Shown in pieces: positions 4,200 through 23,699 of a stretch of DNA of 64,000 nt (its first letter is position 1; each line of letters begins with the position of its first letter). The notes beneath the pieces are model-generated. The model searched no databases. It was given only the letters and a program-made list of their open reading frames with translations, and had not been told where the DNA came from. This DNA is from Pseudomonadota bacterium (GTDB lineage: Bacteria; Pseudomonadota; Gammaproteobacteria; Steroidobacterales; Steroidobacteraceae), in contig JAKAXA010000002.1 of NCBI GenBank assembly GCA_021816775.1, forward strand, positions 121,113-185,112. Reading direction: 5' to 3'. The translations under genes were made by a program, and so were the position numbers.

Positions 4200-4251
4200 C
4201 GTCGATCTCCGTAATGTCTGATCTGTAACTGTAGTCCGCACACCGGCTGAG

Positions 4252-5010
4252 TCAGCCGAGGCTGTATCCCATCTCGCGCGAGATATCGGCCGCCGCGCGC
4301 GTGAGTTCGTATCCGAGCTTCTGTAGGCGCTTTCCCAAAACGGTCTCTGGCGTCTCGGAAATGCTGAGCGCACCGACGAGCCGGCGATTGCGGCCGTAAA
4401 CCGGCGCGCCGAGCGCAGCAAGTCCGGGTATCATCTCTTCGCGCGCGATCGCATAACCGCGCTCCCGCGCCTCCTCGATATCCTTGCGAAGCGCAGCGCG
4501 ATTGGTGATTGTGCTCTTGGTGAGCGCCACAAGCTCGACGGTGCGCAAGTAATCGCCCAGCTCGGCAGGCGCCATATGGGCCAGAATCGCCTTGCCGATG
4601 GCCGAACAATAGGCTGGAGTGCGCGGACCGATCTGATGCGACAGGTAATCCTCCGAGCGCGGCACGGCAAGATGAGTGATCAGAACCGCGCCGTTGTCGA
4701 AGATGCCGATGCGCGCGGTCAGTCCGGTGCGCGCCGCCAGATTCTGCGCCAGGCGCGCCCCTTTGACATTGATCTCGAGATTGCCGATGTAGATCATGCC
4801 CAGCTCGAAAAGACGGGGTCCCACGCCGTATTTACGCGTGTCCGGATCTTGCTGCAGAAAGCCCTGCTGTTCGAGCGTCGTCACCAGCCCCCACGCCGTC
4901 CCCTTGTTCAGCCCCAGGGCAGCGGCGATCTCCGTCACACCGAGCCGCTGCGGCGATCGGCAAAAGAGGGAAATGATATCCGTCGCCCGCTGTACCGATT
5001 GGATGATCAT
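4252..5010 (-). CDS. IclR-family transcriptional regulator
   Basis: wHTH LGVTEIAAALGLNKGTAWGLVTTLEQQGFL plus an IclR-type effector domain (GIFDNGAVLITH...GLAALGAPVY). ATG 5010 was chosen; a TTG at 5121 is an alternative start but would overlap the upstream gene by 26 nt. Confidence 0.8.
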   Translation of the reverse strand: MIIQSVQRATDIISLFCRSPQRLGVTEIAAALGLNKGTAWGLVTTLEQQGFLQQDPDTRKYGVGPRLFELGMIYIGNLEINVKGARLAQNLAARTGLTARIGIFDNGAVLITHLAVPRSEDYLSHQIGPRTPAYCSAIGKAILAHMAPAELGDYLRTVELVALTKSTITNRAALRKDIEEARERGYAIAREEMIPGLAALGAPVYGRNRRLVGALSISETPETVLGKRLQKLGYELTRAAADISREMGYSLG

Positions 5011-6282: not shown

Positions 6283-7470
6283 TTAATTCCCTTCATCCGC
6301 GAGCGTTTCGGGCAGGAACGGCAGCAGTTTCAGAGCAAGGAGCGTGATGAGCACGGCGAGTGCGCAGCCGCCAAGACCGAGCGCGCACTCCGGAAGGCTC
6401 GGAGCGTAGTAGCCCACCACGCCGTCGTAGAAGGAACTCGAAACCTGCATGCCGGGGAAAATCGAAAGCGGCCATGCCTGACCGCCAATGACGACGTCGT
6501 ACACGAGGGCGAGTCCGCCCACCACGACCGAGACCGAGCCCCAGCCGACCGCGGCACGTGAGCGGCGCATCGGCGGCAGCCAGAAAAGCAACATCGGCAG
6601 CACGCCCCCCAGGAACACCGCGCCGAACCAGAAAAGCACCGTGTACGGGCCGCCGCGCCACAGGATAAAGGCCTCGGCGCCGGAGAACTTCGCCTCGTAG
6701 AGCTTGGTGAGGTGAAAGACCAGCAGAAAGTACAGCAGCCCGGCGGCGAAGGCGCCGAGCAGGTTCTTCAGGCGCATCAGCGTCTCGTCCCCCAAAGGTC
6801 GAGCGCCGGCGCGGCACGCCGCCATCAGCACCAGGATGAAGATCGCGAGCCCGAAGGCAAGGGACATCACGATGAACATCGGGGCCATGATCGCTTCGTC
6901 ATACGGCTGGCGCGCCACCAGAAGGCCGAAGATCGAGCCGGTGCCGGTAGTCAGGATCAGCCGCCATAGGAAGGCGACCGTGCCCACCATGCGGCTATGG
7001 CGGTTCAGGCGCTGTTCCATCATCACCCACAAATACCACCCGGTCACCGCGATGAAGCCGGTGTACAGCAAGATGTTCCAGGCGAAGATCGAGCGGAAAT
7101 TGTAGTGCGTCATCGCCACGCCCAACCGGTCCGGCCGCCCCAGATCGAGCACCAGGATGGCCAGCCCACCGATGAGCAGCGCAATCGCCAGCAGCCCGGA
7201 CAATCGCGCCAGCGGCTTGTACGCCACTCTGCCGAACACCGAGGCAATGGAGGCGGTATTGAGCGCCCCGGAGGCCGCGACGATCAGAAACACCGCAAAC
7301 ACGTGCGGCATCCCCCACACCACCTGATTGCTCATACCGGTGATGATGTGCCCAATATGCTCCATGAAATACGCCGCCGTCAGCCCGGCGGCCAGCAAGA
7401 GCGCCAGCAATCCCACCAGCGCCCAGAAGCCGCCGCTGCCGTCGATCTCGCGGTAATGGATCGCTCTCAT
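6283..7470 (-). CDS. dsrP: NrfD/PsrC-type integral membrane subunit, DsrP-like
   Basis: 395 aa and about 10 hydrophobic helices. 4-nt overlap with the dsrO-like stop. Sits in the dsrMKJOP gene order. Confidence 0.8.
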   Translation of the reverse strand: MRAIHYREIDGSGGFWALVGLLALLLAAGLTAAYFMEHIGHIITGMSNQVVWGMPHVFAVFLIVAASGALNTASIASVFGRVAYKPLARLSGLLAIALLIGGLAILVLDLGRPDRLGVAMTHYNFRSIFAWNILLYTGFIAVTGWYLWVMMEQRLNRHSRMVGTVAFLWRLILTTGTGSIFGLLVARQPYDEAIMAPMFIVMSLAFGLAIFILVLMAACRAGARPLGDETLMRLKNLLGAFAAGLLYFLLVFHLTKLYEAKFSGAEAFILWRGGPYTVLFWFGAVFLGGVLPMLLFWLPPMRRSRAAVGWGSVSVVVGGLALVYDVVIGGQAWPLSIFPGMQVSSSFYDGVVGYYAPSLPECALGLGGCALAVLITLLALKLLPFLPETLADEGN

Positions 7471-8231
7471 GGCAAGCCCTGATACTGCACGCCCGGATCG
7501 AGCATCAGATCGGCACGCAACTGCACCGAAGGAAACTCAGCCAGGGCACGACTGATCTCGCTCGCCGGGTCCTTCAGATCCCCGAAGGTCATCGCCCTGC
7601 CGCCCTCGTGCGCGCAAGCCTGGACGCACGCCGGCACCTGCCCCGCATCGATGCGGTCGACGCACAGCGTGCAGCCCTCCACCGTGCCCTTGCCGCGCGG
7701 CGCCCAGGGCTTCTGCCCGGAAATCTCCTCACTGACAAAGGAGCGCGCCTTGTACGGACAGGCCATCATGCAATAGCGGCAGCCGATGCAGATGTGCCGG
7801 TCCACCAGCACGATGCCGTCGGCGCGCTTGAACGAGGCGCCGGTCGGGCATACCTCCACGCACGGCGCCTTCGCGCAGTGCTGGCACATCACCGGCACCG
7901 AGCGCGACACACCGGTCTCGGGATCTGTTACCTGCACTTTGCGGATCCACTGTGGATCGGTGGGCCGCCCTTCGTTCTTCCAACCATTATACGAGGAGCA
8001 CGCCGTGACGCAGGCCGTGCAGGACGACTTGCACTTGGTGGTGTCGATCAGGAGACCCCAGCGAGTCCTCGCGCTCGCCCCCTGCTTCCTGCCCTGCCCT
8101 TCGGCAAACGCGAGCAGACTCACCCCCGGAGCCACCACCAGAGCGCTCAACGCCGCTGTGCCCAGGAAGCGCCGCCGGTCCTCATCCACCTCGTGCCCGG
8201 TTCCCCGAGGCGCCGCCGGCCTGCCGGTCAT
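7467..8231 (-). CDS. dsrO: Periplasmic (Tat) 4x[4Fe-4S] ferredoxin subunit, DsrO-like
   Basis: ORF trimmed to ATG 8231 (ATGA overlap with the dsrJ-like stop). Twin-arginine motif DRRRFLGTAALSAL, then Cys clusters CKSSCTACVTAC, CQHCAKAPCVEVCP and CIGCRYCMMACP. Confidence 0.8.
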   Translation of the reverse strand: MTGRPAAPRGTGHEVDEDRRRFLGTAALSALVVAPGVSLLAFAEGQGRKQGASARTRWGLLIDTTKCKSSCTACVTACSSYNGWKNEGRPTDPQWIRKVQVTDPETGVSRSVPVMCQHCAKAPCVEVCPTGASFKRADGIVLVDRHICIGCRYCMMACPYKARSFVSEEISGQKPWAPRGKGTVEGCTLCVDRIDAGQVPACVQACAHEGGRAMTFGDLKDPASEISRALAEFPSVQLRADLMLDPGVQYQGLP

Positions 8232-8758
8232 GGCCATCTCCACGGCGCCTCTCGGCGGCGCCGCGCCGTGGACGAGCCACCTGCAACTCGCGGCGGGACG
8301 ATGGCCGGATTGCCGATTGCCGCGAGCGCCACAAGTCGCGCCTCGCCGCCGGACTGAGCAACTGTCCCGGCGCCGGAACCCGGCCGGTTGCTGTGGCAGG
8401 AGAAGCAGTCGATGCGCACTCCGACATACTGATGGCAGGCATTGCAGAAGAACTTGCTGCTTGTCACCGACGGATACTTCCCATCCGCCAGCCTCGACAC
8501 GTGGCAGCTGATGCACCCGGGCAGACTCTCCTGCCTGTTACGGATGCCCTCATGCACCGCCTCGTACCGCACCCGCATCAACAGCTTCATGTGATTCTTG
8601 CGCATCCAAGCTACGGGCCGCACGCAATGCGCGCCTTTGGCCCGAGGAATGGCGGGCAAAGCGCTGCCCGTGTGCGCCACGGCCCCAAGCCAGAACGGTG
8701 CTGTCAGCAACAGGAGCAGCAGCGCCAACCCTGCGAGAATCACCGGGCGATCACGCAT
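8228..8758 (-). CDS. dsrJ: Triheme cytochrome c, DsrJ-like
   Basis: N-terminal signal anchor MRDRPVILAGLALLLLLLTAP. Exactly three CXXCH motifs (CISCH, CNACH, CFSCH). Confidence 0.8.
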   Translation of the reverse strand: MRDRPVILAGLALLLLLLTAPFWLGAVAHTGSALPAIPRAKGAHCVRPVAWMRKNHMKLLMRVRYEAVHEGIRNRQESLPGCISCHVSRLADGKYPSVTSSKFFCNACHQYVGVRIDCFSCHSNRPGSGAGTVAQSGGEARLVALAAIGNPAIVPPRVAGGSSTARRRREAPWRWP

Positions 8759-10361
8759 TCGCCGCCTCCTTCGCGAGCGGCTCGCCGCGCAGGTTGGTGG
8801 TGCGCTCCTTTGCGCCCTTCATCACCAGCGCGTTGCCGAGCAGCTCGTGCACGCCCGCCACCTGCACACCCGACACCCAGTAATCCATCAGCGTCGGCAG
8901 CGTCGCCTTGTCGATGGCGCAGATACAGGCGAGCAGGTTGACGCCGTGCGCCTCGCGCACGTGGCGCACGGCTTCGGCGCGGGGGAAGCCCCCACGCAGG
9001 CGCATTTCCAGGTTCTCGGTGTTGCCCAGCCCGGCGCCGCTGCCGCAGCAGAAGGTGAATTCTCGGATCGTCTTCGCCGGCATCTCGTGAAAGTGGTTGC
9101 AGGTGCGCTTGAGGACGTAGCGCGGCTCTTCCAGGAGCCCCATGGCGCGCGCGGGATTGCAGGAATCATGATAGGTGACGACGTATTCGTCGTTACGCGA
9201 AGGATCGAGCTTGATCTTCTCGTGATAGAGCAGGTCCGCGGTGAACTCGCAGATGTGCACCATCTTGGTGGAGGCAGCGTTCCCGAAGCGCGTACCGGTG
9301 AGCGGCGAGACGGGCACCTCCAGAAAGTCGGCGGGGCCGTTCATCGTGTCCATGTATTGATGCAGCACGCGCCACATGTGCCCGCATTCGCCGCCCAGGA
9401 TCCACTTGACGCCGAGGCGCTTCGCCTCCTCGTAGATCTTGGCATTCAGACGCTTCATCAGATCGTTGGAATGAAACAGACCGAAATTGCCGCCTTCCGA
9501 GGCATAGGCGCTCACCGTGAAATCGAGGCCGATCTCGTGGAACAGCATCATGTAGCCGAGCAGCGTGTAGTAGTGCGGCGTGGCGAAGTAGTCCGCCGAC
9601 GGCATCACAAACAGAATTTCCGCGCCCTTGCGGCTGATCGGGATCTCGACGTCGAGCCCGGTGAGCTCCCGCAGCTCGTCGCGGGCGAAGTCCAGGGCGT
9701 CTTTGAAGGCGTGGGGCGCAATGCCGAGATGGTTGCCGACCCGGTAGCAATTGGCCGCCGGCTCCGTGACCCAGTGCGTGCTCACGCCGATCAGGCTGAG
9801 CAGCTCACGGACGATCATGGTGATCTCGGCGGTGTCGATACCGAACGGACAATAGATCGAGCAGCGGCGGCATTCCGTGCACTGATAGAAGTAATAGAAC
9901 CACTCCTTGACCACGTCCTCGGTCAGCTCCCGAGCGCCCGCCAGCGAACCGAACAGTCGCCCGGAGAGCGTGAAATAGCGCCGGTAAACCGAGCGGATCA
10001 GCTCGGCGCGCGCAAATGGCATATTCTTGGGATCGCCGGAGCCGAGATAGAAATGGCACTTGTCGGCGCAGGCGCCACAGCGCACGCACACATCCATGAA
10101 CAGGCGGAAGGAGCGGTACTTGGCGAGCCGCTCCTGCATGCCGCGCAGAAGAATTCCCTTCCAGTCCGCCGGCAATTGCCAATCGAGGTCGGTAGGTTGC
10201 CATTTGCGCGGATTCGGCAGCCCGAGAGCAATCAGGTCCTTAGGCAGCGACGCGTTGCTGAACGTGCCCCGGCGCAACTCGACGTGTGCATCCCGCCAGT
10301 CGCCCTTCGGCGCGTTCAGCTCGATGTCGATGACGGGTTTATCGGACACGGTCGGCCTCAT
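8751..10361 (-). CDS. dsrK: HdrD-like Fe-S/CCG-domain subunit, DsrK-like
   Basis: Ferredoxin motifs CVRCGACADKC and CTECRRCSIYCP. CCG-type motifs YHDSCNPARAMG and FTFCCGSGAG. 536 aa. Confidence 0.85.
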   Translation of the reverse strand: MRPTVSDKPVIDIELNAPKGDWRDAHVELRRGTFSNASLPKDLIALGLPNPRKWQPTDLDWQLPADWKGILLRGMQERLAKYRSFRLFMDVCVRCGACADKCHFYLGSGDPKNMPFARAELIRSVYRRYFTLSGRLFGSLAGARELTEDVVKEWFYYFYQCTECRRCSIYCPFGIDTAEITMIVRELLSLIGVSTHWVTEPAANCYRVGNHLGIAPHAFKDALDFARDELRELTGLDVEIPISRKGAEILFVMPSADYFATPHYYTLLGYMMLFHEIGLDFTVSAYASEGGNFGLFHSNDLMKRLNAKIYEEAKRLGVKWILGGECGHMWRVLHQYMDTMNGPADFLEVPVSPLTGTRFGNAASTKMVHICEFTADLLYHEKIKLDPSRNDEYVVTYHDSCNPARAMGLLEEPRYVLKRTCNHFHEMPAKTIREFTFCCGSGAGLGNTENLEMRLRGGFPRAEAVRHVREAHGVNLLACICAIDKATLPTLMDYWVSGVQVAGVHELLGNALVMKGAKERTTNLRGEPLAKEAANA

Positions 10362-11343
10362 CGAGCGGCAGTCCGGCGAGTTTCAATTTGTCCGCGTTCG
10401 TGGCTTCCCATTCCGCATAAGTGTTGGTGGGCACGGGGCTGTTCCAGGGATTGATGTGGCGCACACGCCGACTGTTGTTGGCCAGATTGCGAGTCGGGCT
10501 GAGAAACACCCCGCCGAAATGCATCAGCTTCGAGAACGGTAAGTAGATCGCGAGGGTCGACACCAGCAGCAGATGGACCAGAAGCAGCGCACTCGGCGCC
10601 GCGGGAACCACCGGATGAAATGCCGTCAGAGCGAGTGCAAACTCCTTGACCGCCACGATGTTCACCGGCGCAACGTAACGCATGGCGATGCCCGACACAG
10701 CGATGCCGAGCAGCAGCAGCAACGCAAAATAATCGGTGAAGAGCGACATATAGCGCAGCAGCGGATTGACGAGCCGCCGACCCAGCAGGTAGATCAACGC
10801 CACGACGACGAGCACATCCGTGATGAGCAAAGCAGGTGCACCGATCCGCAGGAAGCCGTCGAGCGCATCGAGCGGCGGCACGAAGAACGGCGTCGGCAGA
10901 AGCACGAAGCGCAGGTGCCGCAAGAGAATTACGAGCAGCGACCAGTGCAGCACTAGTGATGCCAGCCACAGTAGACGCGCCTCGGAAAGCACGAGTCGCC
11001 CCGCCGCGACGTGCGTGCGGCTGTTGCGCAACAGCGAACGGAACACCAGCGCCTCGATCGCTACGCGGATCGCCGCCATGACCCTGTTGTCGGGATTATC
11101 GATGGGCGCGGTGCGAATCCAGGGGAGCGAGCGCTGCTGACCGCAGGTGGTGGGAATGCGATACGGCACCGGGCTCGCCGCCCACCACCAGACTCGCCAG
11201 GCGATCCCGACGCTGAGCGTGAGAAACGCAAAGTAGGGAAGCACCACGGTGATGGCGGCTGTGCCGCCCGGGACCGCGCCCGCAGATGCGCCGGCCATCG
11301 CGAGGAAAACAACGGCGGCAGCGGCGGCGATGAGCGCCTTCAT
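10339..11343 (-). CDS. dsrM: NarI-like dihaem b membrane subunit, DsrM-like
   Basis: 334 aa, five to six helices with conserved His (LVLHWSLL, LLVHLLLV), and a C-terminal cytoplasmic tail. Position immediately upstream of the dsrK-like gene. Confidence 0.75.
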   Translation of the reverse strand: MKALIAAAAAVVFLAMAGASAGAVPGGTAAITVVLPYFAFLTLSVGIAWRVWWWAASPVPYRIPTTCGQQRSLPWIRTAPIDNPDNRVMAAIRVAIEALVFRSLLRNSRTHVAAGRLVLSEARLLWLASLVLHWSLLVILLRHLRFVLLPTPFFVPPLDALDGFLRIGAPALLITDVLVVVALIYLLGRRLVNPLLRYMSLFTDYFALLLLLGIAVSGIAMRYVAPVNIVAVKEFALALTAFHPVVPAAPSALLLVHLLLVSTLAIYLPFSKLMHFGGVFLSPTRNLANNSRRVRHINPWNSPVPTNTYAEWEATNADKLKLAGLPLDEADRVR

Positions 11344-11807
11344 GCCGGCGCACCACCGCGCTGAACGGCGCGCCGGCGAGCGACGCCGATGGCACGAAGC
11401 TGCTCGTTCAGTCTGAGATCGGCGAGACGCTCACGGCAGGCGAGATATTGCGTGAAGGCCGAAATCGCGAGGCGGTCGATGCGCGCCTCGGTCTCGGCCG
11501 GCTGCATCTGCGGGGCCTCGTCACGCACGATACCGCGCAGCCGAAAGACGAATCCGACTGCGCGCTCCACCGAGAGGTCTTGGATCGCGCGCAGCGCCAT
11601 GATCTCGGCGAATGCCGCATCGATGGCGGCCTCATCCATCGCACCAAAGAACTCACGCACCAGTGCCGCGAGATTCCTGCGCAGTGCATGACCGATGGGA
11701 TTGAGGAAAGGATCGCGCTCGGTGAGCGTCCGCTCGGCAATCAGCCCGCCAAAGACCGTGGCCGCCGCGGCAAGCCAACGCTCCTCGACGGTGGCCCGCA
11801 CGGCCAT
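11340..11807 (-). CDS. Hypothetical 155-aa protein in the dsrT position (between dsrC and dsrM)
   Basis: ATGA stop/start overlap with the dsrM-like gene. High GC3. All-helical-looking sequence with no motif I can name. The DsrT assignment is positional only. Confidence 0.55.
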   Translation of the reverse strand: MAVRATVEERWLAAAATVFGGLIAERTLTERDPFLNPIGHALRRNLAALVREFFGAMDEAAIDAAFAEIMALRAIQDLSVERAVGFVFRLRGIVRDEAPQMQPAETEARIDRLAISAFTQYLACRERLADLRLNEQLRAIGVARRRAVQRGGAPA

Positions 11808-11812
11808 TGGTC

Positions 11813-12130
11813 CTACACGCAGCCGGTTGGCTTCGCGAGGCCTGCTACCTTGCAGGTGCCCTTGGCTGGGCCCGAGCGGAACAACTGATAGATGTGATCG
11901 AGGTCCATCTTGTTGTCGCGACAGACCTTGCGCACCATCGGCGCGACTCCGTACGAATAGAAATAATTGCGAATGTAGTTGATCAACTGCCAGTGCTCTG
12001 GGTTCAGTTCGGTGATTCCCTCAGTCAGCGCGAGGTCACGCGCGACGTCCTCGGTCCAGAGCTCCGGCTCCTGAAGGAACCCATCGTCGTCTACTTCGTA
12101 AGTGCGGTCTTCAACCTTGTAAGTGGGCAT
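11813..12130 (-). CDS. dsrC: DsrC (DsrC/TusE family with both redox-active C-terminal cysteines)
   Basis: 105 aa. C-terminus is GPAKGTCKVAGLAKPTGCV, the DsrC-type arm with CysB and penultimate CysA. GGGGAG lies 6 nt upstream of the ATG. Confidence 0.9.
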   Translation of the reverse strand: MPTYKVEDRTYEVDDDGFLQEPELWTEDVARDLALTEGITELNPEHWQLINYIRNYFYSYGVAPMVRKVCRDNKMDLDHIYQLFRSGPAKGTCKVAGLAKPTGCV

Positions 12131-12479: not shown

Positions 12480-13331
12480 CTAGTCGCCGCCTGCGCTTGC
12501 CGGTTCCAGCACAATGGCGCCCAGATCCATGTCGTGATGCGCACCGACGGCGATTTCCCTTGGCCGATAGCCCGGCGCGCAGATGCGCAGCACATAACTG
12601 GCACCCGCCTCGAGTGCCTCAAAGGCGAAATCGCCGTACGCATCGGTTACGCCATCGAGCGAGTTCGCTCCATCGTGAAGTGACACGCATACGCCGGCGG
12701 CGGGCTCGCTCATTCGGTCCGCGAAAGCGATCTCGCCCGAAACGAACCGCTTCGGCAGCCCGAGGTAGCGCACGGCGGGCTTCGCGTTGAACTGCGGATG
12801 CAGTTCCTCGGTCGCACGGCCCTTCAGCAGCTGTGAAATTCTGCTGGTCGGATCATCCAGATCGCCGAACACCAATGCCTCGGTCGGGCACGCTTCGACG
12901 CAGCGCGGCTCCTTCCAGCCCTGATCGAGCAGATGGGCACAGAAGGTGCATTTCTGGGCCACTCCCTCCGCTGCATTCCAATAGATCGCTTGGAACGGAC
13001 AGCAGGAGACGATCTCCGGGTGTCCCTTCGCCTTATCCGGATCGATGAGAATGATGCCGTCGTCCCGGCGATAGAGAGCGCCGTTAGGCGCGCGCGACAG
13101 GCAGGTGGCGTCCTTGCACTGCTGGCAGGGCAGCGCCACGTAATCCACCCGCACGCGCGGGAACTTGCCGCGCTCGTGCTCCAGGACGGTGATCCATTTG
13201 TGCCCGCTCTCGGGCTGCGGCGCGGCGATGGGGCGATGATCGTTGCCCACGTGCTCGTCGCGACAGGCGAGAAAGCAATTGTAGCAGCCCGTACAGCGAC
13301 TGACATCGATGACCATTCCGTACGTCGTCAT
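12480..13331 (-). CDS. Fe-S subunit of transhydroxylase/resorcinol-hydroxylase type (BthL-like)
   Basis: ORF trimmed to ATG 13331 (GGAG 6 nt upstream, 10 nt after the athL-like stop). MVIDVSRCTGCYNCFLACRDEH and further Cys clusters. C-terminal beta-rich domain (GVCVSLHDG...YGDFAFEALEAGASYVLRI) as in BthL. Confidence 0.85.
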   Translation of the reverse strand: MTTYGMVIDVSRCTGCYNCFLACRDEHVGNDHRPIAAPQPESGHKWITVLEHERGKFPRVRVDYVALPCQQCKDATCLSRAPNGALYRRDDGIILIDPDKAKGHPEIVSCCPFQAIYWNAAEGVAQKCTFCAHLLDQGWKEPRCVEACPTEALVFGDLDDPTSRISQLLKGRATEELHPQFNAKPAVRYLGLPKRFVSGEIAFADRMSEPAAGVCVSLHDGANSLDGVTDAYGDFAFEALEAGASYVLRICAPGYRPREIAVGAHHDMDLGAIVLEPASAGGD

Positions 13332-13341
13332 GACTTGCTCC

Positions 13342-15861
13342 TCAACCCATCCATTTCTCGACATCGATGAGGCACGAGTTCGAGGCCATGCCGGGCACGT
13401 TCTGCGACATCTGCCGCCCGGGGGTCAGCATGGCCACGCACCCGGCGCGGTCGGGCGAGCGCGGATTGCCCGGCTGCAGCGGGTCGTACTTGCCGGCCGA
13501 GGCATAGGAGTGCACGACGCCTGGGCGCACACGCTCGGTCACCTGGGCGATGCACAGAACCGAGGCGCGGTCGTTGTACAGGCGGATGATGTCGCCCGAG
13601 CGGATGTAGCGGGCGGTGGCGTCCTCAGGATGCAGCCGCGCCGGCCACCAGGCATGACCGTCCTTGACGATGCGGTGCACGGGCACGTCGTTGAGCCAGG
13701 CGGTGTGGCCGTCATAATGGGTGTGGAAAGTGAAGCGCGGATGGGGCGATATGAGCTGCAACGGATAGATTGTCGCCGCTTCGCAGCGATGCCCCTCCCA
13801 GCTCGGAATGTAGCGCGGCGAAACCGGCCGCTCCTCGTCCCGGGGCGCCATGCGGCGCAGGCTCTCGGAGGCGAATTCGATCTTCCCGCTCTCAGTGCCG
13901 AGTTCATTCGCCTTCGCGGTGGCGCGCTTAAAGTTGTTGGGATCGGGCGTATCGCAGGGCCGGCCTTCGGCGAACCAGCGCAACGCGGGGGTGGATTTGT
14001 AATCCTCCGGCACGTTGATGACGTAATAGCCCTTGCGGTCGAACTCCTCCCAGGAAATGTATTTCGGCAGATCGGAGATCTCGAAGAACTTGCGCGCCCA
14101 GTCCAGATCGCTGTTGCCTTCGGTGTAATCCGCATTGAAGCCCAGCTTCCCAGCTAGCTCGCTGAAGATCTGGTAGTCGGATTTCGATTCCCACAGCGGC
14201 TCGATCGCCTTCTTCAGCCGCACCACGACCCGATAGTTGCAGCCGCTGCTGCCGCCCTTGGTCTGGCCGCCCGGCTCGCCGAACTCGCCGATGTCGTCGC
14301 GCTCGAGCGAGGTGCACGCGGGCAGAATGATGTCCGCATGGGCGGTCTCGGTAGACCACCAGCAATCCTGATTGACCACGCATTCAAGCTTCGGGCTCTG
14401 ATACATGCGCACCCACTTGCTGGTGTCGGTCATGGTGCTCATGAACGAGCCGCCGTAGCGGTAAAACATCCTGACCTCGGAACAGCCCTCCATCGGATAG
14501 GTGAAGGGGATGAACTGCTGCTGGAAATTCCTGTTGCAGAACCCGACACCATTCCAGTGCACCGGCGGATCGAGAATCGCGTCCGGCAGGGTGAGGCGGT
14601 AGAGCTTCTGCGGCACCTTGTTCTCGGGAATCCTGCGCGCCACTTTGGTGGAGGTTGCAATGCGTCCCTCCAGGTCGCCGTAGCCTGGGAACCAGACCTT
14701 GCTGTTCCACGGCGCACCCATGCTGGTGCCCCAGATGGAAATACCCGGGTTGCCGAGCCCCTGCATCGCCTGCAGTAGCACCATGAGCCGCGCCCACTCG
14801 GTAGCATAGGCGCCGCGGCACGCCCCACCCTCGCCGCCGCGGCAGCCGGCTGAGAGCACCGTGCGCTTCGAGGCCCAGTCGCGCGCCAGCGCCACGATCT
14901 TGCGCGCCGGCACGGCCGATTCCGCCTCGGCCCAATTCGGCGTCTTGGGCACGCCATCTGTGACGCCTTTGACGTAATCGCGAAACTCATCGAAGCCGAC
15001 GGTCCGGTCGGCGACATATCGCTTGTCGTACGTGCCTTCGCTCACCCACACATAGGCAATGGCGAGCGCCACGGCGGCATCGGTACCCGGGCGCGGCGCC
15101 AGCCATTTCCCTTTCATTGCGGCCGCGGTGTAGTTGTAGAAGGGATCGACGAAAGTCATCGCCACACCCTTGTCCTTCAGCCACTGCCGCCAGATCGCCG
15201 CGTCGCTGCCGTCATAGACCGCACGGGTCGTATCCGGATCGTTCGACCAGAAAACGATCATCTCGGCATGCTGCAGAGCGTCTTCCAGCATGTCGTAGGG
15301 CTCGGGCATGCCGAGGCGCCAGATGAAACCGTAGGAATGCGTGGCGCCCCAGTGCCAGCCCTCCCAGCTGTCAGGGTTATCGAACACCTGGGTGTAGCCG
15401 AGGAAGTTGAAAAAGCGCGAGAAGGCACTCATTTTGTAGCCGACGAGGCCCCAATTGTGGTGCGATGAGGTCATGGCCGCGAGCGCCGAGGGGCCGTAGG
15501 TTGCCTGCACCCGCTGGATCTCGCTCGCGACGATGCTGAGCGCTTCCTCCCAGGAAATGCGCACATAGCCCGACTTGCCGCGGTTCTGCGGATTGCGCTC
15601 GCCGTTCGGATCGAAATCCACCCGCCTCATGGGGTAGCGAATGCGGTCATCCGAATAGAGCCGGTTGCGCTCGGCATGAACGTACGGCGCGAGCGTCACC
15701 TTCTTGGGCGGAGAGTAGGACTTGCCGTCGGCTTTGATGGTCCAGGGTGCGAGGTCGCCCTCCTCCATCACCAGCGGTCGCACGCGCACCACCCGGCCGT
15801 CCTTCACCTCGACGGTGATCGGTCCGCAATTGGTGCAACTGGTAAAGCTCTGTGTCGGCAC
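13342..15861 (-). CDS. AthL-like Mo-bisPGD hydroxylase/transhydroxylase large subunit, paralog C
   Basis: 839 aa. RIRYPMRRVDFDPNGERNPQNRGKSGYVRISWEEA, SSHHNWG, NPDSWEGWHWG, WSNDPDTT, ILPACTSLERDD, LISPHPRFTFHT; ends SCLIDVEKWMG. No Tat signal. Confidence 0.9.
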   Translation of the reverse strand: MPTQSFTSCTNCGPITVEVKDGRVVRVRPLVMEEGDLAPWTIKADGKSYSPPKKVTLAPYVHAERNRLYSDDRIRYPMRRVDFDPNGERNPQNRGKSGYVRISWEEALSIVASEIQRVQATYGPSALAAMTSSHHNWGLVGYKMSAFSRFFNFLGYTQVFDNPDSWEGWHWGATHSYGFIWRLGMPEPYDMLEDALQHAEMIVFWSNDPDTTRAVYDGSDAAIWRQWLKDKGVAMTFVDPFYNYTAAAMKGKWLAPRPGTDAAVALAIAYVWVSEGTYDKRYVADRTVGFDEFRDYVKGVTDGVPKTPNWAEAESAVPARKIVALARDWASKRTVLSAGCRGGEGGACRGAYATEWARLMVLLQAMQGLGNPGISIWGTSMGAPWNSKVWFPGYGDLEGRIATSTKVARRIPENKVPQKLYRLTLPDAILDPPVHWNGVGFCNRNFQQQFIPFTYPMEGCSEVRMFYRYGGSFMSTMTDTSKWVRMYQSPKLECVVNQDCWWSTETAHADIILPACTSLERDDIGEFGEPGGQTKGGSSGCNYRVVVRLKKAIEPLWESKSDYQIFSELAGKLGFNADYTEGNSDLDWARKFFEISDLPKYISWEEFDRKGYYVINVPEDYKSTPALRWFAEGRPCDTPDPNNFKRATAKANELGTESGKIEFASESLRRMAPRDEERPVSPRYIPSWEGHRCEAATIYPLQLISPHPRFTFHTHYDGHTAWLNDVPVHRIVKDGHAWWPARLHPEDATARYIRSGDIIRLYNDRASVLCIAQVTERVRPGVVHSYASAGKYDPLQPGNPRSPDRAGCVAMLTPGRQMSQNVPGMASNSCLIDVEKWMG

Positions 15862-16025
15862 GGTCGTGCTCCTTACCCACGTCTCGGCAGGGCCGGGTGC
15901 CCCTTCCCCAAGTGGAATATTTTCTCACGAAGCGCTCCCAGACCGTGTCACAAGGGATTGTTACTTGCTGCCTTCAGGGGGCGGGCGGAGGATTAGGACT
16001 TGGTTTCATCTGCCCGACACGCGCG

Positions 16026-19000
16026 ATGCGCTTTTCGCTGATCCTCTGGTGCCTGCCGTGGGTGCTCAGGCTCTATGCCCGGCGCTCTGCCAAGCTCCGC
16101 GCGCTGATGGCGGCACGCGATTTCACGGTCCAGATCATCGTCAAGGACGGCTCGCGCGGCCGCTGGCTGCGCTTTGAGGGAGGCAGACTGCTCTCCGGCG
16201 CGAGTGCGCGGGCTGACGCCGAGGTCACCCTGCGCTTCAAGTCGGCGGCACTCGGGACGCGCATTCTGACCCGCCTCACCTCCGGAATGTTCCACTTCGC
16301 CTGGCCAGTGCTGAAGCGCTTCCTCGAGCCGATGGAAGTAATCACTGCGGCGAAGAACTTCGCCTTCGAGGTACTCGGACCGGACGAACTTACCGTTCAG
16401 TTCACCGACATCCTGAACGCGATGATCACGCATGGCTGGCGCCAGGGCACGCCGGTCGGCAGCGGCGAGATCCGCTACGTCAACCAGACCAATGGCGGAC
16501 CGGTCTTCGTCTACGTGAAGGACGGCAGGATCGTGCGCATCACACCGATGGAATTCGCCGCCGATGATCCACAGCCCTGGGTCATCGAAGCACGCGGGCG
16601 GAAATTCTCACCGCCGCGGCGGGCGACGCTGAGTCCGCACGGCCTCGCCTCGAAATCGCTCGTCTACTCTCCCAAGCGCCTGCTCTATCCCATGAGGCGC
16701 GTGGACTGGGATCCGCAAGGCGAACGCAACCCCCAGAACCGCGGCAAGTCCGGCTATGTGCGCATCTCATGGGACGAGGCCCTCGACATCGCCGCCAGCG
16801 AGATCAAACGCGTCCGCCGCGAGCACGGCCACGGAGCCATCCTGGGCAGCCACGGTTCGCATCACACCTGGGGCAACATCGGCTATTACCTGAGCGCGCA
16901 GATCCGGTTCATGAACGCCATCGGCCATACCCGCATGGTGCTGAACCCAGACAGCTGGGAGGGGTGGTACTGGGGCGCGATGCATCACTACGGCAATTCG
17001 ATGCGAATGGGCGGCGCCGAGCCTTACGGCCAGCTCGAGGACGCACTGCAGCACGCCGAGCTGATCGTGTTCTGGTCATCTGATCCGGAATCGACCTGCG
17101 GCTCCTACGCGGCGTTCGAAGCCACCGTCCGCCGGCAATGGGCCAGGCAACTCGGAATTAAGATGGTGCACATCGACCCGTATCTGAACCCGACGGCGAA
17201 CTGGCTGGGCGGAAAGTGGATCGCGCCCGTGCCCGGCTCCAGCCCGGCGCTCGCCCACGCCATCGCTTACGTCTGGATCAGCGAAGGACTCTACGATCGC
17301 GAATACATCGAGAAGCGCACCACCGGCTTCGACAAATACCGCGCCTACATCATGGGCGAACGCGACGGGACGCCCAAATCACCTGAATGGCAGGCGCCGG
17401 AAACCGGCGTAGCCCCGCATATCGTGCGCGCCCTGGCCCGCGAATGGGGCCGCAAGAAGACCTATCTGTCCTGCGGCGGCAAGGGCGTGGCCTTCGGCGG
17501 CGCCAACCGCTCCGCCACCGGCGCGCAGTGGGCACGCGCCATGGTCTGTCTGATGACAATGCAGGGCCTCGGAAAGCCCGGGATCAATTTCGGCAATCTC
17601 GGCACGGGCGCTCCGGTCGATCTCGAATTCTATTTCCCGGGCTATGCCGAGGGCGGCATCTCCGGTGATGTGGAATGCACCGCCGATGCGGCGCAGAACT
17701 ATCAGCGCCTGCCGCACCTGATCAGCATGAACACCGTCACGCAGAAGGTGCCGCGCCTGCGGATTCCGGAAGCCATTCTGGATGGCAAAACGGAAGGCTA
17801 CCCCACTGACAGCCGTTCGCTCGAGGGCCAGTTCCAGAAGTTCAGCTACCCCTCGCCCGGCCACTCGCCGGTGCGCATGATGTACAAATACGGCGGCTCG
17901 CATTTCGGCACCACGATGGAAAGCGGTCGGCTGGCTGACGCTCTGCGCAGCGAGAACCTGGAGTTCGTGCTCAATCAGTCCATCTGGAACGAGGGCGAGG
18001 CACAGTTCGCCGACCTCATCCTCCCGGCCTGCACCAATTTCGAGCGCGCCGACATCAGCGAATGGGCAGGATCGGGCGGTTACGTTCATCACAATCACAA
18101 TCAGATGAACCACCGCGTCATCACGCTGCAGCACAAATGCATCGAGCCACTCGGCGAATCAAAATCGGACTTTCAGATCTTCCTGGAGCTTGCCAAGCGT
18201 CTCGGCCTCAGCTCCTACTTCGGCGAGGGCAAGACGGAATTGCTCTGGTGCCACGAGATTTACCTCAGCTCCGATCTGCCGAAGGCGATTTCCTGGAGGA
18301 AGCTCCTGCGCAAGGGCTATTACGTGGTACCGCCGGAAACCAACGCCGCGAACCGCACCAAGACGAGCTGGCGGTGGTTCGCCGAAGGCCGCAAGAAGGA
18401 CGTGCCCGAACCCGCGCCTCTTCCCGCCGAATATGGCGGCGAGTATCTCGACGGATTGCAGACGCAATCGGGCCTGTTCGAGTTCGAGTCCTCCAGCCTC
18501 GAGCGCTACGGCGAGGATCCGGAGCGCCCGCCGCTCAACATCTATATCCCTGCCTGGGAAGGCCGGCAGACGGGGGCGCTCTACGCACGCTACCCGCTGC
18601 AGCTGATCTCTCCTCACCCGCGTTTCAGCTTCCACACCCAGACCGACGGCAAGGACGGAGTGCTTAACGACATCACCGATCACCGCGTGCTGCGGGATGG
18701 TCACTATTATTGGATCGCACGGCTCAATCCCGCCGACGCACGCGCCCGTGGCATCGCACAGCACGACCTGATCAAGTTGTACAACGACCGCGGCGCGGTG
18801 ATCTGCGCCGCCGTGCTGACCGAGCGGCTCCTGGCCGGCGTCGTGCACGCGTACAGCTCCTCGGCGGAATATCAACCGGTAGGCGAGGCCGGCGCCACCG
18901 CGGACATCGGCGGCTGCATCAACGTCCTGACGTCTAAGCGCCATATGACGGAGAAGACCTCGGCCTGCGCCCCCAACTCCTGCCTGATTGAGATCGAAAA

Positions 19001-19028
19001 GTGGCACCCCGAAGGAGCTGGCCCATGA
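16026..19028 (+). CDS. AthL-like large subunit, paralog D, with about 145-aa N-terminal extension (hydrophobic helix + SCP2-like domain)
   Basis: ORF 15852..19028 trimmed to the first ATG clear of the divergent gene. Residues about 146-1000: GGPVFVYVKDGRIVRITPMEF, GSHHTWG, NPDSWEGWYWG, FYFPGYAEGGISGD, ILPACTNFERADISEW, LISPHPRFSFHT, CLIEIEKW. The start codon is uncertain: there is no clear SD, and ATG 16422 is an alternative. Confidence 0.85.
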   Translation: MRFSLILWCLPWVLRLYARRSAKLRALMAARDFTVQIIVKDGSRGRWLRFEGGRLLSGASARADAEVTLRFKSAALGTRILTRLTSGMFHFAWPVLKRFLEPMEVITAAKNFAFEVLGPDELTVQFTDILNAMITHGWRQGTPVGSGEIRYVNQTNGGPVFVYVKDGRIVRITPMEFAADDPQPWVIEARGRKFSPPRRATLSPHGLASKSLVYSPKRLLYPMRRVDWDPQGERNPQNRGKSGYVRISWDEALDIAASEIKRVRREHGHGAILGSHGSHHTWGNIGYYLSAQIRFMNAIGHTRMVLNPDSWEGWYWGAMHHYGNSMRMGGAEPYGQLEDALQHAELIVFWSSDPESTCGSYAAFEATVRRQWARQLGIKMVHIDPYLNPTANWLGGKWIAPVPGSSPALAHAIAYVWISEGLYDREYIEKRTTGFDKYRAYIMGERDGTPKSPEWQAPETGVAPHIVRALAREWGRKKTYLSCGGKGVAFGGANRSATGAQWARAMVCLMTMQGLGKPGINFGNLGTGAPVDLEFYFPGYAEGGISGDVECTADAAQNYQRLPHLISMNTVTQKVPRLRIPEAILDGKTEGYPTDSRSLEGQFQKFSYPSPGHSPVRMMYKYGGSHFGTTMESGRLADALRSENLEFVLNQSIWNEGEAQFADLILPACTNFERADISEWAGSGGYVHHNHNQMNHRVITLQHKCIEPLGESKSDFQIFLELAKRLGLSSYFGEGKTELLWCHEIYLSSDLPKAISWRKLLRKGYYVVPPETNAANRTKTSWRWFAEGRKKDVPEPAPLPAEYGGEYLDGLQTQSGLFEFESSSLERYGEDPERPPLNIYIPAWEGRQTGALYARYPLQLISPHPRFSFHTQTDGKDGVLNDITDHRVLRDGHYYWIARLNPADARARGIAQHDLIKLYNDRGAVICAAVLTERLLAGVVHAYSSSAEYQPVGEAGATADIGGCINVLTSKRHMTEKTSACAPNSCLIEIEKWHPEGAGP

Positions 19029-19873
19029 AGAAGTGGAATCTCGTGATCGATGTTGCCGAGTGCCACAACTGCAACAATTGCTTTCTCGCCGTCAAGGACG
19101 AATATGTCGGCAATGACATTCCGGGCTACTGCGCGGCCCAGCCGTCGCACGGCCACAGATGGATCAACATCCTGAGCCGGGAACGGGGGCGAGCACCGAT
19201 GGTCGATGCCGCACACGTGCCCACTACCTGCAACCATTGCGATGCCGCGCCCTGCATCGCCGCAGGCAGAGGCGCGGTAAAGAAGCGGCCGGACGGGATC
19301 GTGCTGATCGAACCCGAGGCGGCGAAGGGCCGCAAGGACCTCGTAACCGCGTGCCCCTATGGGGCGATCTGGTGGAATGAGGAACGCTCACTCCCCCAGG
19401 CCTGGCCGTTCGATGCCCATCTGCTCGATCGCGGCTGGCCGGCTCCGCGCCCCGTGCAGTCCTGCCCGACGGGGGCGATCCGGGCGCTGAAGGTGAGCGA
19501 CACCGAAATGACGCAGATGGCGCGCGCGCAGGAGCTGCAAACCCTGCGGCCGGAGCTGGGCACGAGGCCACGGGTCTATTACCGGAACCTGCATCGTTAT
19601 ACGCATCTCTTTGCCGGCGGCACGGTGCTCGGCGCCAAGGGCGGCGTCATCGATTGCCTGGCGGGCGCGCGCCTCGAGCTGCTCAACAGCGGGCGTGTAA
19701 TCGCGGCGACCGAGACCGACACTTTCGGGGACTTCAAATTCGACCGACTGGCACCCGACAGCGGCGCCTACGAGATCCGCGCCACTCACACGGATCATCG
19801 TCCGGTCTCGGTGCAGTTCGAAGTACACCGGGCGAGCGCCGTGCTGGAAGATATCCTGCTCGAATCGGCGTAG
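19025..19873 (+). CDS. BthL-like Fe-S subunit partner of paralog D
   Basis: ATGA overlap with the upstream stop. MKKWNLVIDVAECHNCNNCFLAVKDEYVGND and further Cys clusters. C-terminal beta domain (FGDFKFDRLAPDSGAYEIRA). Confidence 0.9.
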   Translation: MKKWNLVIDVAECHNCNNCFLAVKDEYVGNDIPGYCAAQPSHGHRWINILSRERGRAPMVDAAHVPTTCNHCDAAPCIAAGRGAVKKRPDGIVLIEPEAAKGRKDLVTACPYGAIWWNEERSLPQAWPFDAHLLDRGWPAPRPVQSCPTGAIRALKVSDTEMTQMARAQELQTLRPELGTRPRVYYRNLHRYTHLFAGGTVLGAKGGVIDCLAGARLELLNSGRVIAATETDTFGDFKFDRLAPDSGAYEIRATHTDHRPVSVQFEVHRASAVLEDILLESA

Positions 19874-22058: not shown

Positions 22059-23699
22059 ATGAGCCAGAAAAACACCGCAGAAGCGATCGTCGACACGCTG
22101 ATCGCCAACGGGGTCGACACCGTGTTCGGCCTGCCGGGTGCCCAGACGTATTCGCTTTTTGATGCGTTGTATCAGCGCCGGGATGTCATCCGTACGATCG
22201 GGGCACGGCATGAGCAGGCACTCGCTTACATGGCATTTGGCTACGCCTGTTCGACCGGCAGATTGGGTGTCTATGCTCCCGTGCCTGGACCGGGTCTACT
22301 GAATACCACCGCGGCGATGTGCACCGCCTATGGCGCATGTGCACCGACGCTGTGCATTACAGGTGAGGTGCCGTCGGACTTCAAAGGCCGGGGCCGCGGA
22401 CACCTGCATGAGTTGGGCGATCAGCTGGGTATTTTGCGGCGGCTCACCCGTCACGCACAGCACATCGAGCGTCCGCAAGAGGCTCCATCCGCCATCAATG
22501 CGGCGATCGCCGCCGCGATGAGCGGCCGGCGGGGTCCCGCGGCGGTCTCGGTCTGCTGGGATACTTTGGGCGAATCCGCCCTCATCGAGCAATGCGTCCC
22601 CGCTGAAATTCCGGTCGCCCCGCCGCCGGATGCTCGGCAGGTGGCACGATGCATACGACTGATCCGCGAGGCCAAGCGCCCGATGATCTTCACCGGCAGC
22701 GGCGCGCAGCATGCCGCTCCTGCCGTACAGGCCTTTGCGGAGCGCCTGCAGGCGCCGGTCGTGGCTTGTCGCGGCGGTCGCGGAATCGTCGGGCAGGACC
22801 GTCCTCTCGGCCTCGACATCGCCACGGCGTGGCATTTGTGGGACGAAGTCGATCTCATGATCGGCATCGGCACACGCCTGGAGATCCCCTTCATGCGCTG
22901 GGGCTCGATGATGCAGGCCCTTCGCGCCCTCCCCGGCCGCAAGCTCATCCGCATCGACATCGACCCCACCGAGATGGACAAGCTCGACACCGACGGCCCG
23001 CTGGTTGCGGATGCCGAGGCCGGCGTGCGGGCGTTGGTGGCCGCGCTCGATGCCGCGGGTTACGTGGCGCGCGCCCATTCCGCAAAAATCGCGCAGGCCA
23101 AGGAGCGCACCGCCGTCGAGATCCGGCGCGTACAGCCGCAGATGGCTTATCTCGAGGTGATCCGTGAGGCACTGCCGCGCGACGGAATCCTGGTCGAGGA
23201 GCTGACACAGGTCGGGTTCACCTCTCACTTCGGATGGCCGGTGTACGAGCCGCGCACCTACATCAGCTGCGGCTATCAGGGCACGCTCGGCTTCGGCTTC
23301 CCGAGCGCGCTCGGGGTCAAGATCGCGCATCCCGACCGCGCGGTGGTGTCGATCACGGGGGACGGCGGGTTCATGTTCGCCATGCCGGAACTCTCCACGG
23401 CGGTTCAGTATGGCATTGGAGTGGTCACCATCGTCTTCGACAATTCCGCCTTTGAAAACGTCCGCCGCGATCAGCAGCAGCGGTTTGCCGGCCGCGAGAT
23501 GGGCTCAAGACTGCTTAATCCGGACTTCCATGACCTGGCGAGAACCTTCGGCGTCGAAGCATACCGGGTCGATTCGCCCGCAGCGTTACGTCCCGCGCTG
23601 CAGCGGGCGCTGGCGCTGCGCGCGCCGGCTCTGATCCATGTGCGGGTTACGCCGGCCACGGAAGTCTCGCCGTGGCCATTCCTCATGCACAGCCCATAA
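22059..23699 (+). CDS. Thiamine-diphosphate-dependent enzyme (acetolactate synthase / benzoylformate decarboxylase superfamily)
   Basis: N-terminal domain VFGLPGAQTYSLFDAL...RHEQALAYMAFGYA. TPP motif ITGDGGFMFAMPELSTAVQYGIGVVTIVFDNSAF. Confidence 0.85.
   Translation: MSQKNTAEAIVDTLIANGVDTVFGLPGAQTYSLFDALYQRRDVIRTIGARHEQALAYMAFGYACSTGRLGVYAPVPGPGLLNTTAAMCTAYGACAPTLCITGEVPSDFKGRGRGHLHELGDQLGILRRLTRHAQHIERPQEAPSAINAAIAAAMSGRRGPAAVSVCWDTLGESALIEQCVPAEIPVAPPPDARQVARCIRLIREAKRPMIFTGSGAQHAAPAVQAFAERLQAPVVACRGGRGIVGQDRPLGLDIATAWHLWDEVDLMIGIGTRLEIPFMRWGSMMQALRALPGRKLIRIDIDPTEMDKLDTDGPLVADAEAGVRALVAALDAAGYVARAHSAKIAQAKERTAVEIRRVQPQMAYLEVIREALPRDGILVEELTQVGFTSHFGWPVYEPRTYISCGYQGTLGFGFPSALGVKIAHPDRAVVSITGDGGFMFAMPELSTAVQYGIGVVTIVFDNSAFENVRRDQQQRFAGREMGSRLLNPDFHDLARTFGVEAYRVDSPAALRPALQRALALRAPALIHVRVTPATEVSPWPFLMHSP

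Follow-up and report, generated by a model that had tools for sequence, protein, structure and literature searches.

A predicted SCP2-fold domain fused to AthL-type molybdenum hydroxylases goes together with the loss of an iron–sulfur cluster in their small subunits

The DNA stretch analysed here (the window; 64,000 nucleotides from a genome assigned to the Steroidobacteraceae, assembly GCA_021816775.1, contig JAKAXA010000002.1, positions 121,113 to 185,112) carries on its plus strand a gene for the large (α) subunit of an AthL-like molybdopterin enzyme, extended at its N-terminus by an SCP2-like domain. The open reading frame (ORF) is open from 15852 to 19028, and an ATG within it, at 16026, gives a protein of 1000 amino acids. 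The gene (16026..19028), defined by Pfam, PDB alignment and full-length homologues, is made up of the SCP2-like domain, a linker of residues 136–157 (HGWRQGTPVGSGEIRYVNQTNG; 16431..16496, plus strand), in which G141, G147 and R150 are conserved and which leads to AthL domain I, and the catalytic part (16497..18983, plus strand). Three Pfam domains score above threshold in the latter, i.e., AhtL-like_1st (residues 158–212, 94.3 bits), Molybdopterin (218–725, 103.5 bits) and Molydop_binding (858–986, 54.5 bits). Query residues 149–994 align with AthL (PDB 4v4c_A, 875 residues) at E 2e-283, and the motifs NPDSWEGW, which begins at nucleotide 16944, SHHTWGN and FYFPGYAEGG align with identical motifs of AthL. 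In the AthL structure these motifs belong to the active site, and the serine of NPDSWEGW (residue 310) is the presumed molybdenum ligand. With the three domains, end-to-end similarity to AthL and the serine and active-site motifs all present, the product of 16026–19028 is the large subunit of a cytoplasmic AthL/BthL-type molybdenum phenol hydroxylase. AthL homology sets in at residue 149–158 counted from ATG 16026, and as residue 5 of AthL pairs with residue 149, some 148 residues at the N-terminus have no counterpart in the reference enzyme. The initial annotation, made from the letters alone, had noted a long open frame of high G+C content at third codon positions (GC3) ahead of the AthL homology, with no stop before the catalytic part; both hold, since the two parts form one continuous 1000-residue ORF, and the peptide strings quoted there are exact.

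Residues 1–157 of α have no match above threshold in Pfam, and NCBIfam likewise leaves the region unannotated. GC3 is 0.83 in 16026–16421 and 0.82 in the catalytic part, as against 0.64 in frame upstream of 16026. Homologues of the extension, at 27–90% identity, have the same start position (Met, Val or Leu; ATG, GTG or TTG) and align over the whole of it. Compared with the closest genomes, the extension differs mainly at third codon positions; against one of them (locus L003) it has 45 differences at codon position 3 and 25 at positions 1 and 2 together, and 34 codons differ synonymously and 25 non-synonymously. No Shine-Dalgarno motif was found just before ATG 16026 and no sigma-70-like promoter in the 164-bp divergent intergenic region, and because of this the start at 16026 is placed by comparative evidence alone. 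By such comparison the first ~150 residues of α are confirmed to be translated, conserved and missing from crystallised AthL, and it is very probable that the extension is a translated domain of SCP2 fold.

That the extension resembles SCP2 had been proposed in the initial annotation, and the proposal stands at the level of fold and fails at the Pfam threshold. When checked against PF02036 the window protein does give a match, in which residues 21–78 pair with profile positions 10–67, at 14.8 bits (E 0.038), below the gathering cut-off of 21.3. SCP2 was also the commonest weak Pfam match among 52 diverse homologues (7/52, best E 0.0024), one of which matched Alkyl_sulf_C (E 0.0014). Searches of NCBIfam and PDB profiles with the extension gave no match, and alignment with hhalign of a 108-sequence profile to single E. 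coli UbiJ and UbiT sequences was not significant (P ~0.05, probability ~1%), with registers that are sensible for such weak matches (residues 6–70 to UbiJ 7–72, and 113–132 to UbiT 115–134). Detection of SCP2 by sequence alone was therefore abandoned, all of these searches being sub-threshold or empty; only structure prediction resolved the fold. AlphaFold2 (AF2) gave a predicted local distance difference test score (pLDDT) of 73.7 with a 13-sequence alignment, and of 86.5, with a predicted template-modelling score of 0.77, with a 52-sequence alignment. The predicted domain (residues 1–135; 16026..16430, plus strand) runs in the order helix (2–20), helix (22–30), four strands (33–39, 45–51, 54–59 and 67–71), helices (74–86, 90–99 and 102–110), strand (114–117) and helix (120–135), and so has the N-terminal helices, five-stranded sheet and C-terminal helix of the SCP2 family. 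When both AF2 models were compared with the PDB by Foldseek, the top ~36 matches were all SCP2-fold proteins, with probabilities of 0.95–1.00 and template-modelling (TM) scores, normalised to the target, of up to 0.66. The C-terminal domains of the alkylsulfatases SdsA1, Pisa1 and YjcS matched best (E 5e-5 to 6e-5); UbiJ-SCP2 (6H6N, 6H6O, 6H6P) followed at E 1e-4 and a target-normalised TM score of 0.5–0.66, along with AF1534, TT1886 and mammalian, insect and yeast SCP2. Structure prediction thus returned the fold that the initial annotation had expected, and with UbiJ-SCP2 crystal structures among the best matches the link that it drew to UbiJ and UbiT is reasonable. Judging from these models the domain very probably has the SCP2 fold; the assignment is one of fold, and not of Pfam family membership, for which the sequence thresholds are not reached. 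Within the domain the polar residues Q36, D41, R46, K72 and K110 are nearly or fully invariant, and the hydrophobic residues of helix α1 and of the strands follow a conserved pattern such as is typical of a cavity. A 15-residue aromatic insertion at residues 85–99 (TSGMFHFAWPVLKRF; 16278..16322, plus strand) occurs in the subclade of the window only and is missing from more distant members; it forms an extra predicted helix and is the part modelled with lowest confidence (pLDDT 66–73). It could be a lid or a membrane-contact element.

The fusion is widespread. More than 120 clusters of proteins of ~985–1030 residues cover 99–100% of the query at 61–90% identity, and a profile of the extension alone found 672 representative proteins at E ≤ 1e-3, 311 of them at ≤ 1e-10. 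A genome scan, which used a 13-sequence alignment and as a single search pattern samples part of the clade, gave 44 loci, nearly all of them from metagenome-assembled genomes (MAGs) of Alpha-, Beta- and Gammaproteobacteria; one carries the label Oscillospiraceae. After five loci that run off a contig end were left out, a fused ORF of ~1000 codons was present in 35 of the 39 that could be judged, and the other four are frameshifted genes in long-read assemblies. A stand-alone SCP2 gene was found in none of the 44, and short database matches are consistent with contig-end fragments. Cultured carriers include Ensifer canadensis, Rhizobium sp. T136, Burkholderia stagnalis, Burkholderia sp. THE68, Cupriavidus oxalaticus, Salipiger abyssi, Paraburkholderia hospita and Paraburkholderia sp. 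PGU19; in cultured bacteria the gene lies on megaplasmids or chromids and is annotated just as “molybdopterin-dependent oxidoreductase”. Some genomes hold more than one copy. In hundreds of proteins the domain is missed by current Pfam and NCBIfam annotation, and no description of SCP2 joined to AthL- or RhL-type enzymes was found in the searchable literature. The remark in the initial annotation that it knew of no such fusion in this enzyme family agrees with the literature that was searched, whereas in sequence databases the fusion is common: it is a not rare but so far undescribed variant of a known family. In a rough neighbour-joining tree of the catalytic parts, computed without bootstrap, all fused sequences form one clade with the Oscillospiraceae sequence basal, an extension-less enzyme of 865 residues is the sister of this clade, and the type of the 839-residue paralogue of the window (see below) branches further out. 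On this tree the fusion appears to have arisen once, defining a large clade of mainly Alpha-, Beta- and Gammaproteobacteria.

The small (β, BthL-like) subunit of 282 residues is encoded directly downstream (19025..19873, plus strand). Its ATG at 19025 overlaps the α stop codon as ATGA (19025–19028), with GAAGGAG 8 nucleotides upstream, which indicates translational coupling of the subunits; the GTG at 19001 given as start by the ORF list is probably too early. In place of the twelve cluster cysteines of the AthL/BthL small subunit, i.e., ligands for three clusters, this β has eight, which serve two [4Fe-4S] clusters; those of the third cluster have gone. Relative to BthL and to the small subunit of the extension-less pair in the window, FLACRDE has become FLAVKDE, C-T-F-C-AHLLD has become W-P-F-D-AHLLD and C-x-x-x-CP has become V-x-x-CP, so that the four ligand positions hold V, W, D and P. 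W127-P-F-D130 thus stands in place of a C-x-x-C (19403..19414, plus strand; W127 at 19403–19405, D130 at 19412–19414). We take the ligand scheme of NarH, from the structure of NarGHI, to apply here, with cysteines 1–3 of group I and cysteine 4 of group IV binding FS1, cysteine 4 of group I and cysteines 1–3 of group IV binding FS2, and FS2 in the middle of the FS1–FS2–FS3 chain. By analogy with this scheme the lost cluster would be the FS2 equivalent, the middle [4Fe-4S].

The same change accompanies the fusion almost throughout. W and D occupy the C-x-x-C positions in 38 of 39 β subunits next to a fused α (fetched loci, L003–L058), and at the two remaining FS2 ligand positions the usual residues are A, V or T at one and G, P or A at the other. 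All twelve cysteines are kept in 11 of 11 β subunits next to an intact extension-less α, as they are in crystallised BthL; two further W…D subunits that were scored by script as extension-less partners belong to frameshifted fused genes. The ligands of FS1 and FS3 are invariant. As judged from these alignments, the gain of the SCP2 domain in α goes closely together with a remodelled electron-transfer subunit. The sole exception among fused pairs is the basal Oscillospiraceae locus (L046), whose β keeps its cysteines, and because this member has the domain together with all cysteines, it seems that the domain was gained before the cluster was lost. The locus comes from an Oscillospiraceae-labelled MAG with a G+C content of 65% and has a fused α at 7920–10892 and a β with 12 cysteines at 10870–11727; it may be an evolutionary intermediate or a mis-binned contig. 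In a large clade that lacks specific functional annotation, the gain of a lipid-binding domain is thus linked with the loss of an Fe-S cluster, and the two together suggest that its electron exit route has changed.

The nearest characterised relative is the pyrogallol-phloroglucinol transhydroxylase AthL/BthL of Pelobacter acidigallici (PDB 4V4C). The catalytic parts are alike end to end, with the same three Pfam domains and with the NPDSWEGW, SHH-WGN and FYFPGYAEGG motifs conserved, β has the same ferredoxin-like part and CarboxypepD_reg-like barrel as BthL, and neither system has a Tat-type signal. AthL differs in having no N-terminal domain, its residue 5 corresponding to residue 149 of the fused α, and BthL in keeping 12 cluster cysteines where the β of the window has eight and W…D; moreover, the contexts of fused genes are those of aerobic or facultative aromatic catabolism and not of fermentation. 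The resorcinol hydroxylase RhLS/RehLS of Aromatoleum anaerobium and DbhLS of Thauera aromatica AR-1 are αβ enzymes of the same family, and in the net reaction they hydroxylate phenols with water (PMC10100899; PMC10084136). DbhLS, a 3,5-dihydroxybenzoate hydroxylase, and RhLS belong to a pathway that goes on without O2 via hydroxyhydroquinone dehydrogenase, whereas most fused contexts hold O2-dependent ring-cleavage enzymes. Both enzymes have been described as membrane-associated, with no identified anchor subunit. No homologue named RhL or DbhL was among the matches listed.

SCP2 domains have other enzyme partners as well. UbiJ and UbiT place the fold alongside a hydroxylase of a phenolic ring, UbiJ-SCP2 is among the best structural matches, and in the UbiT-UbiU fusion of Zymomonas an SCP2 domain is already joined to an O2-independent hydroxylase. 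The window domain differs in that it has no significant sequence similarity to UbiJ or UbiT, no ubi gene context and no UbiJ-type C-terminal coiled coil, and in that its partner is an enzyme with molybdenum bis(pyranopterin guanine dinucleotide) (Mo-bisPGD) and not a U32 Fe-S protein or a flavin monooxygenase. As far as sequence comparison can tell, it is not an orthologue of either protein. In the alkylsulfatases SdsA1, Pisa1 and YjcS an SCP2-like domain is likewise covalently attached to a catalytic domain, but there it is C-terminal, on a metallo-β-lactamase hydrolase, with no redox chemistry. It is considered to be a module for taking up alkyl chains, long ones in the case of SdsA1.

The only universally conserved neighbour of the fused gene is that of the small subunit. 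Among 10 annotated contexts, FAH-family hydrolases occur in seven, VOC/glyoxalase or LigAB dioxygenases also in seven, thiamine pyrophosphate (TPP) enzymes in five, Amidohydro_2 decarboxylase-like genes in four and FadL or OmpW channels in three; IclR, LysR or TetR regulators and uptake proteins are frequent. No anchor gene of NarI, NrfD or DmsC type adjoins the fused pairs in these 10 contexts, and neither there nor in the window were ubi genes (ubiE-ubiJ-ubiB, ubiT-ubiU-ubiV) found nearby. The contexts point to the catabolism of aromatics, for the most part by O2-dependent ring cleavage, rather than to quinone biosynthesis. They also suggest that ordinary aerobic ring-cleavage pathways are supplied by water-dependent phenol hydroxylation more often than has been assumed. 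A conserved lipid-catabolic context (VOC, FAH, acyl-CoA synthetase, FadL), common to three megaplasmid loci, was considered and dropped, as tblastn was negative for it in the 44 MAG loci; in the contexts annotated by Pfam, VOC and FAH recur and FadL and OmpW do not.

AthL-family enzymes hydroxylate phenols with water instead of O2, and we know of no established route by which electrons from the net hydroxylases of this family reach the respiratory chain, as they have no membrane subunit. The initial annotation had offered two roles for the domain, a membrane tether and docking site for quinone as electron acceptor, or a carrier for a hydrophobic phenolic substrate. We tentatively prefer a version of the first, in which the SCP2 domain, by binding quinone or by docking on the membrane, serves as electron outlet for an αβ enzyme that has no anchor; this is quite possible, if still short of probable. 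As a net hydroxylase of phenols that uses water, the enzyme would have to deliver its electrons to the respiratory chain, and they would pass from phenol hydroxylation to Mo-bisPGD, on to the proximal cluster FS1 and from there to the quinone pool, with the SCP2 domain holding an isoprenoid quinone or lying at the membrane surface. In this enzyme superfamily domain I is at the α/β interface, next to the proximal cluster, and because of this the linker of ~20 residues, which joins the SCP2 domain to domain I of α, would tether it near FS1 and the vacated FS2 site. Loss of FS2, with Trp…Asp in its place, would be expected if the new domain had become the centre of a rebuilt electron exit. In UbiJ and UbiT, the SCP2 domains are binders of ubiquinone-pathway lipids and partners of hydroxylases, and UbiT also occurs fused to UbiU (PMC6747719). 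An outlet role is favoured by this precedent, the fusion included, by the co-variation of α and β and by the absence of anchor genes. As the clade includes cultured, genetically tractable soil bacteria (Ensifer, Burkholderia, Cupriavidus), the question of the electron outlet can be put to the test.

Four observations fit such an outlet poorly. First, the clade holds MAGs labelled Deltaproteobacteria and Oscillospiraceae, which are expected to be without ubiquinone. Second, the contrast seen in the window, where the extension-less pair lies near membrane modules and the fused pair does not, fails in three other genomes. Third, the FadL or OmpW channels in three of the 10 contexts hint at hydrophobic substrates. 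Fourth, the distal FS3-equivalent cluster is strictly conserved though the wire to it looks broken, which an exit at FS1 leaves unexplained. It is tempting to speculate, and on balance improbable, that an isoprenoid quinone held by the SCP2 domain replaces the Fe-S cluster itself, with its head group in the Trp/Asp pocket left by FS2, where it would be either the terminal acceptor or a bound relay that connects FS1 with FS3. With a lipid module and a quinone site of its own, a soluble αβ molybdenum hydroxylase would have no need of an anchor, and the presence of resorcinol-type hydroxylases in membrane fractions might be explained in this way.

The main rival to an electron outlet is that the SCP2 domain is a carrier that feeds a hydrophobic phenol (an alkylphenol, alkylresorcinol or prenylated phenol) or a lipophilic hydroxyl-donor cosubstrate to the molybdenum site, which we regard as unlikely but worth keeping in mind. 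The alkylsulfatase domains that head the Foldseek list would fit a carrier, as would the FadL-type or OmpW outer-membrane channels, typically carriers of hydrophobic compounds, that adjoin the genes in Ensifer, Salipiger and Burkholderia; the closest enzyme is, in addition, a transhydroxylase that needs a phenolic cosubstrate. Most contexts, on the other hand, suggest small soluble aromatics (TctC-/TRAP-type binding proteins, Amidohydro_2, VOC/LigAB, FAH and TPP proteins), and the domain is universal across subclades with differing contexts, whereas substrates should vary. A carrier also leaves the coupled loss of the β cluster unexplained, and this loss favours the electron-acceptor option over that of a substrate carrier.

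The near-invariant polar residues Q36, D41, R46, K72 and K110 suit a protein-protein interface better than a greasy cavity, and the strict co-variation with β could be purely structural. It is thus conceivable, though rather unlikely, that the domain is a structural or regulatory module without lipid that packs on β, oligomerises, fills the region of the lost cluster or forms a lid. Such a module accords less well with helix α1 and the strands, in which the cavity-type hydrophobic pattern is kept, with the basal Oscillospiraceae member, where gain of the domain preceded loss of the cluster, and with the SCP2 domains characterised so far, which are lipid binders (PMC6747719).

A true N-terminal transmembrane anchor followed by a soluble domain, i.e., a membrane tether in the literal sense, is very improbable. 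The initial annotation had read the N-terminus as a separate hydrophobic helix with positive-inside character, and the first 14 residues are indeed mostly hydrophobic and followed by RR; some 25% of homologues also reach a Kyte-Doolittle mean of 1.6, the usual cut-off. The reading is not upheld by the models, in which residues 2–20 (RFSLILWCLPWVLRLYARR; 16029..16085, plus strand) form helix α1 inside the SCP2 fold at a pLDDT of ~93, nor by the N-termini of homologues. The window protein reaches a Kyte-Doolittle mean of at most 0.93 over 19 residues, and no uncharged run in it exceeds 12 residues, short of the ~18–20 uncharged residues, conserved in homologues, of a single transmembrane helix; a run of at least 18 residues occurs in only 8% of 108 homologues. 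Of 105 homologues, 100 have R, K, N or H at position 15, K, E or N occupy positions 8 and 11 in many, and the weak hhalign register puts the segment on helix 1 of UbiJ. Helix α1 is therefore, as modelled, a cavity-lining or amphipathic helix and not a conserved transmembrane segment.

Hardly credible is a role as O2-independent molybdenum hydroxylase of polyprenylphenols in ubiquinone biosynthesis, with the SCP2 domain in the part of UbiJ/UbiT: the UbiJ-like fold, the family's hydroxylation of phenols with water, the concentration of the clade in ubiquinone-making taxa and the UbiT-UbiU precedent would suit it, but the genes have no ubi neighbours, stand among catabolic ones (ring-cleavage dioxygenases, FAH hydrolases, IclR/TetR/LysR regulators and transporters), and lie on accessory megaplasmids, in some genomes in more than one copy. 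Next to nothing speaks for an untranslated extension with the protein beginning at ATG 16422, the outcome that the initial annotation had named as fatal to its proposal, since this draws on the missing Shine-Dalgarno motif and promoter and would not account for conservation at the protein level down to ~27% identity with a conserved start position, for the rise in GC3 exactly at 16026, for the skew of substitutions to third codon positions or for the confident fold prediction.

In the window the fused pair (16026–19873, plus strand) is divergent from an extension-less pair (12480–15861, minus strand), which consists of a paralogous large subunit of 839 residues without SCP2 domain (13342..15861), 47.6% identical to the fused α over the catalytic part, and a small subunit with all 12 cluster cysteines kept (12480..13364). 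A third AthL-like large-subunit gene, likewise without SCP2 domain, lies at 1581–4199 on the minus strand; an extension of ~100 residues in its ORF (1581–4421) was rejected as an artefact of an upstream TTG, the likely start being MRETRGDK…, and it has no similarity to the SCP2 profile. The window thus holds three AthL-like large-subunit paralogues of 33–48% mutual identity, only one of which has the SCP2 domain. Downstream of the extension-less pair the minus strand continues with genes for DsrC-like (11813–12130), RsbRD_N-like (11340–11807), NarI/DsrM-like (10339–11343), DsrK-like Fe-S (8751–10361), DsrO-like (7467–8516) and NrfD/DsrP-like (6283–7470) proteins. Such a DsrMKOP-type membrane module (6283–12130) is unusual beside a phenol transhydroxylase-like enzyme, and it is absent beside orthologues of the extension-less paralogue in three other genomes. 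A general rule that extension-less paralogues use membrane anchors and the fused enzyme uses SCP2 holds in the window, fails in these three genomes and was given up.

On the 3′ side of the fused pair follow a LysR regulator and a TPP enzyme. The latter, of acetolactate-synthase type and ~550–610 residues, recurs beside fused αβ genes in several subclades (window 22059–23699, plus strand; L055 11875–13593; L058 12179–13846; L047 6117–7949). By analogy with the TPP-dependent ring cleavage of the anaerobic resorcinol pathway it might, speculatively, act on a product of dione or hydroxyquinone type and cleave it. Many loci hold two AthL-like αβ pairs (L052 5157–12364; L053 5501–12367; L058 4089–11845); an 839-type goes with an 869-type in a Desulfobacter genome and in one further assembly, and a fused type with an 865-type in L058. 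This arrangement suggests consecutive hydroxylation or transhydroxylation steps.

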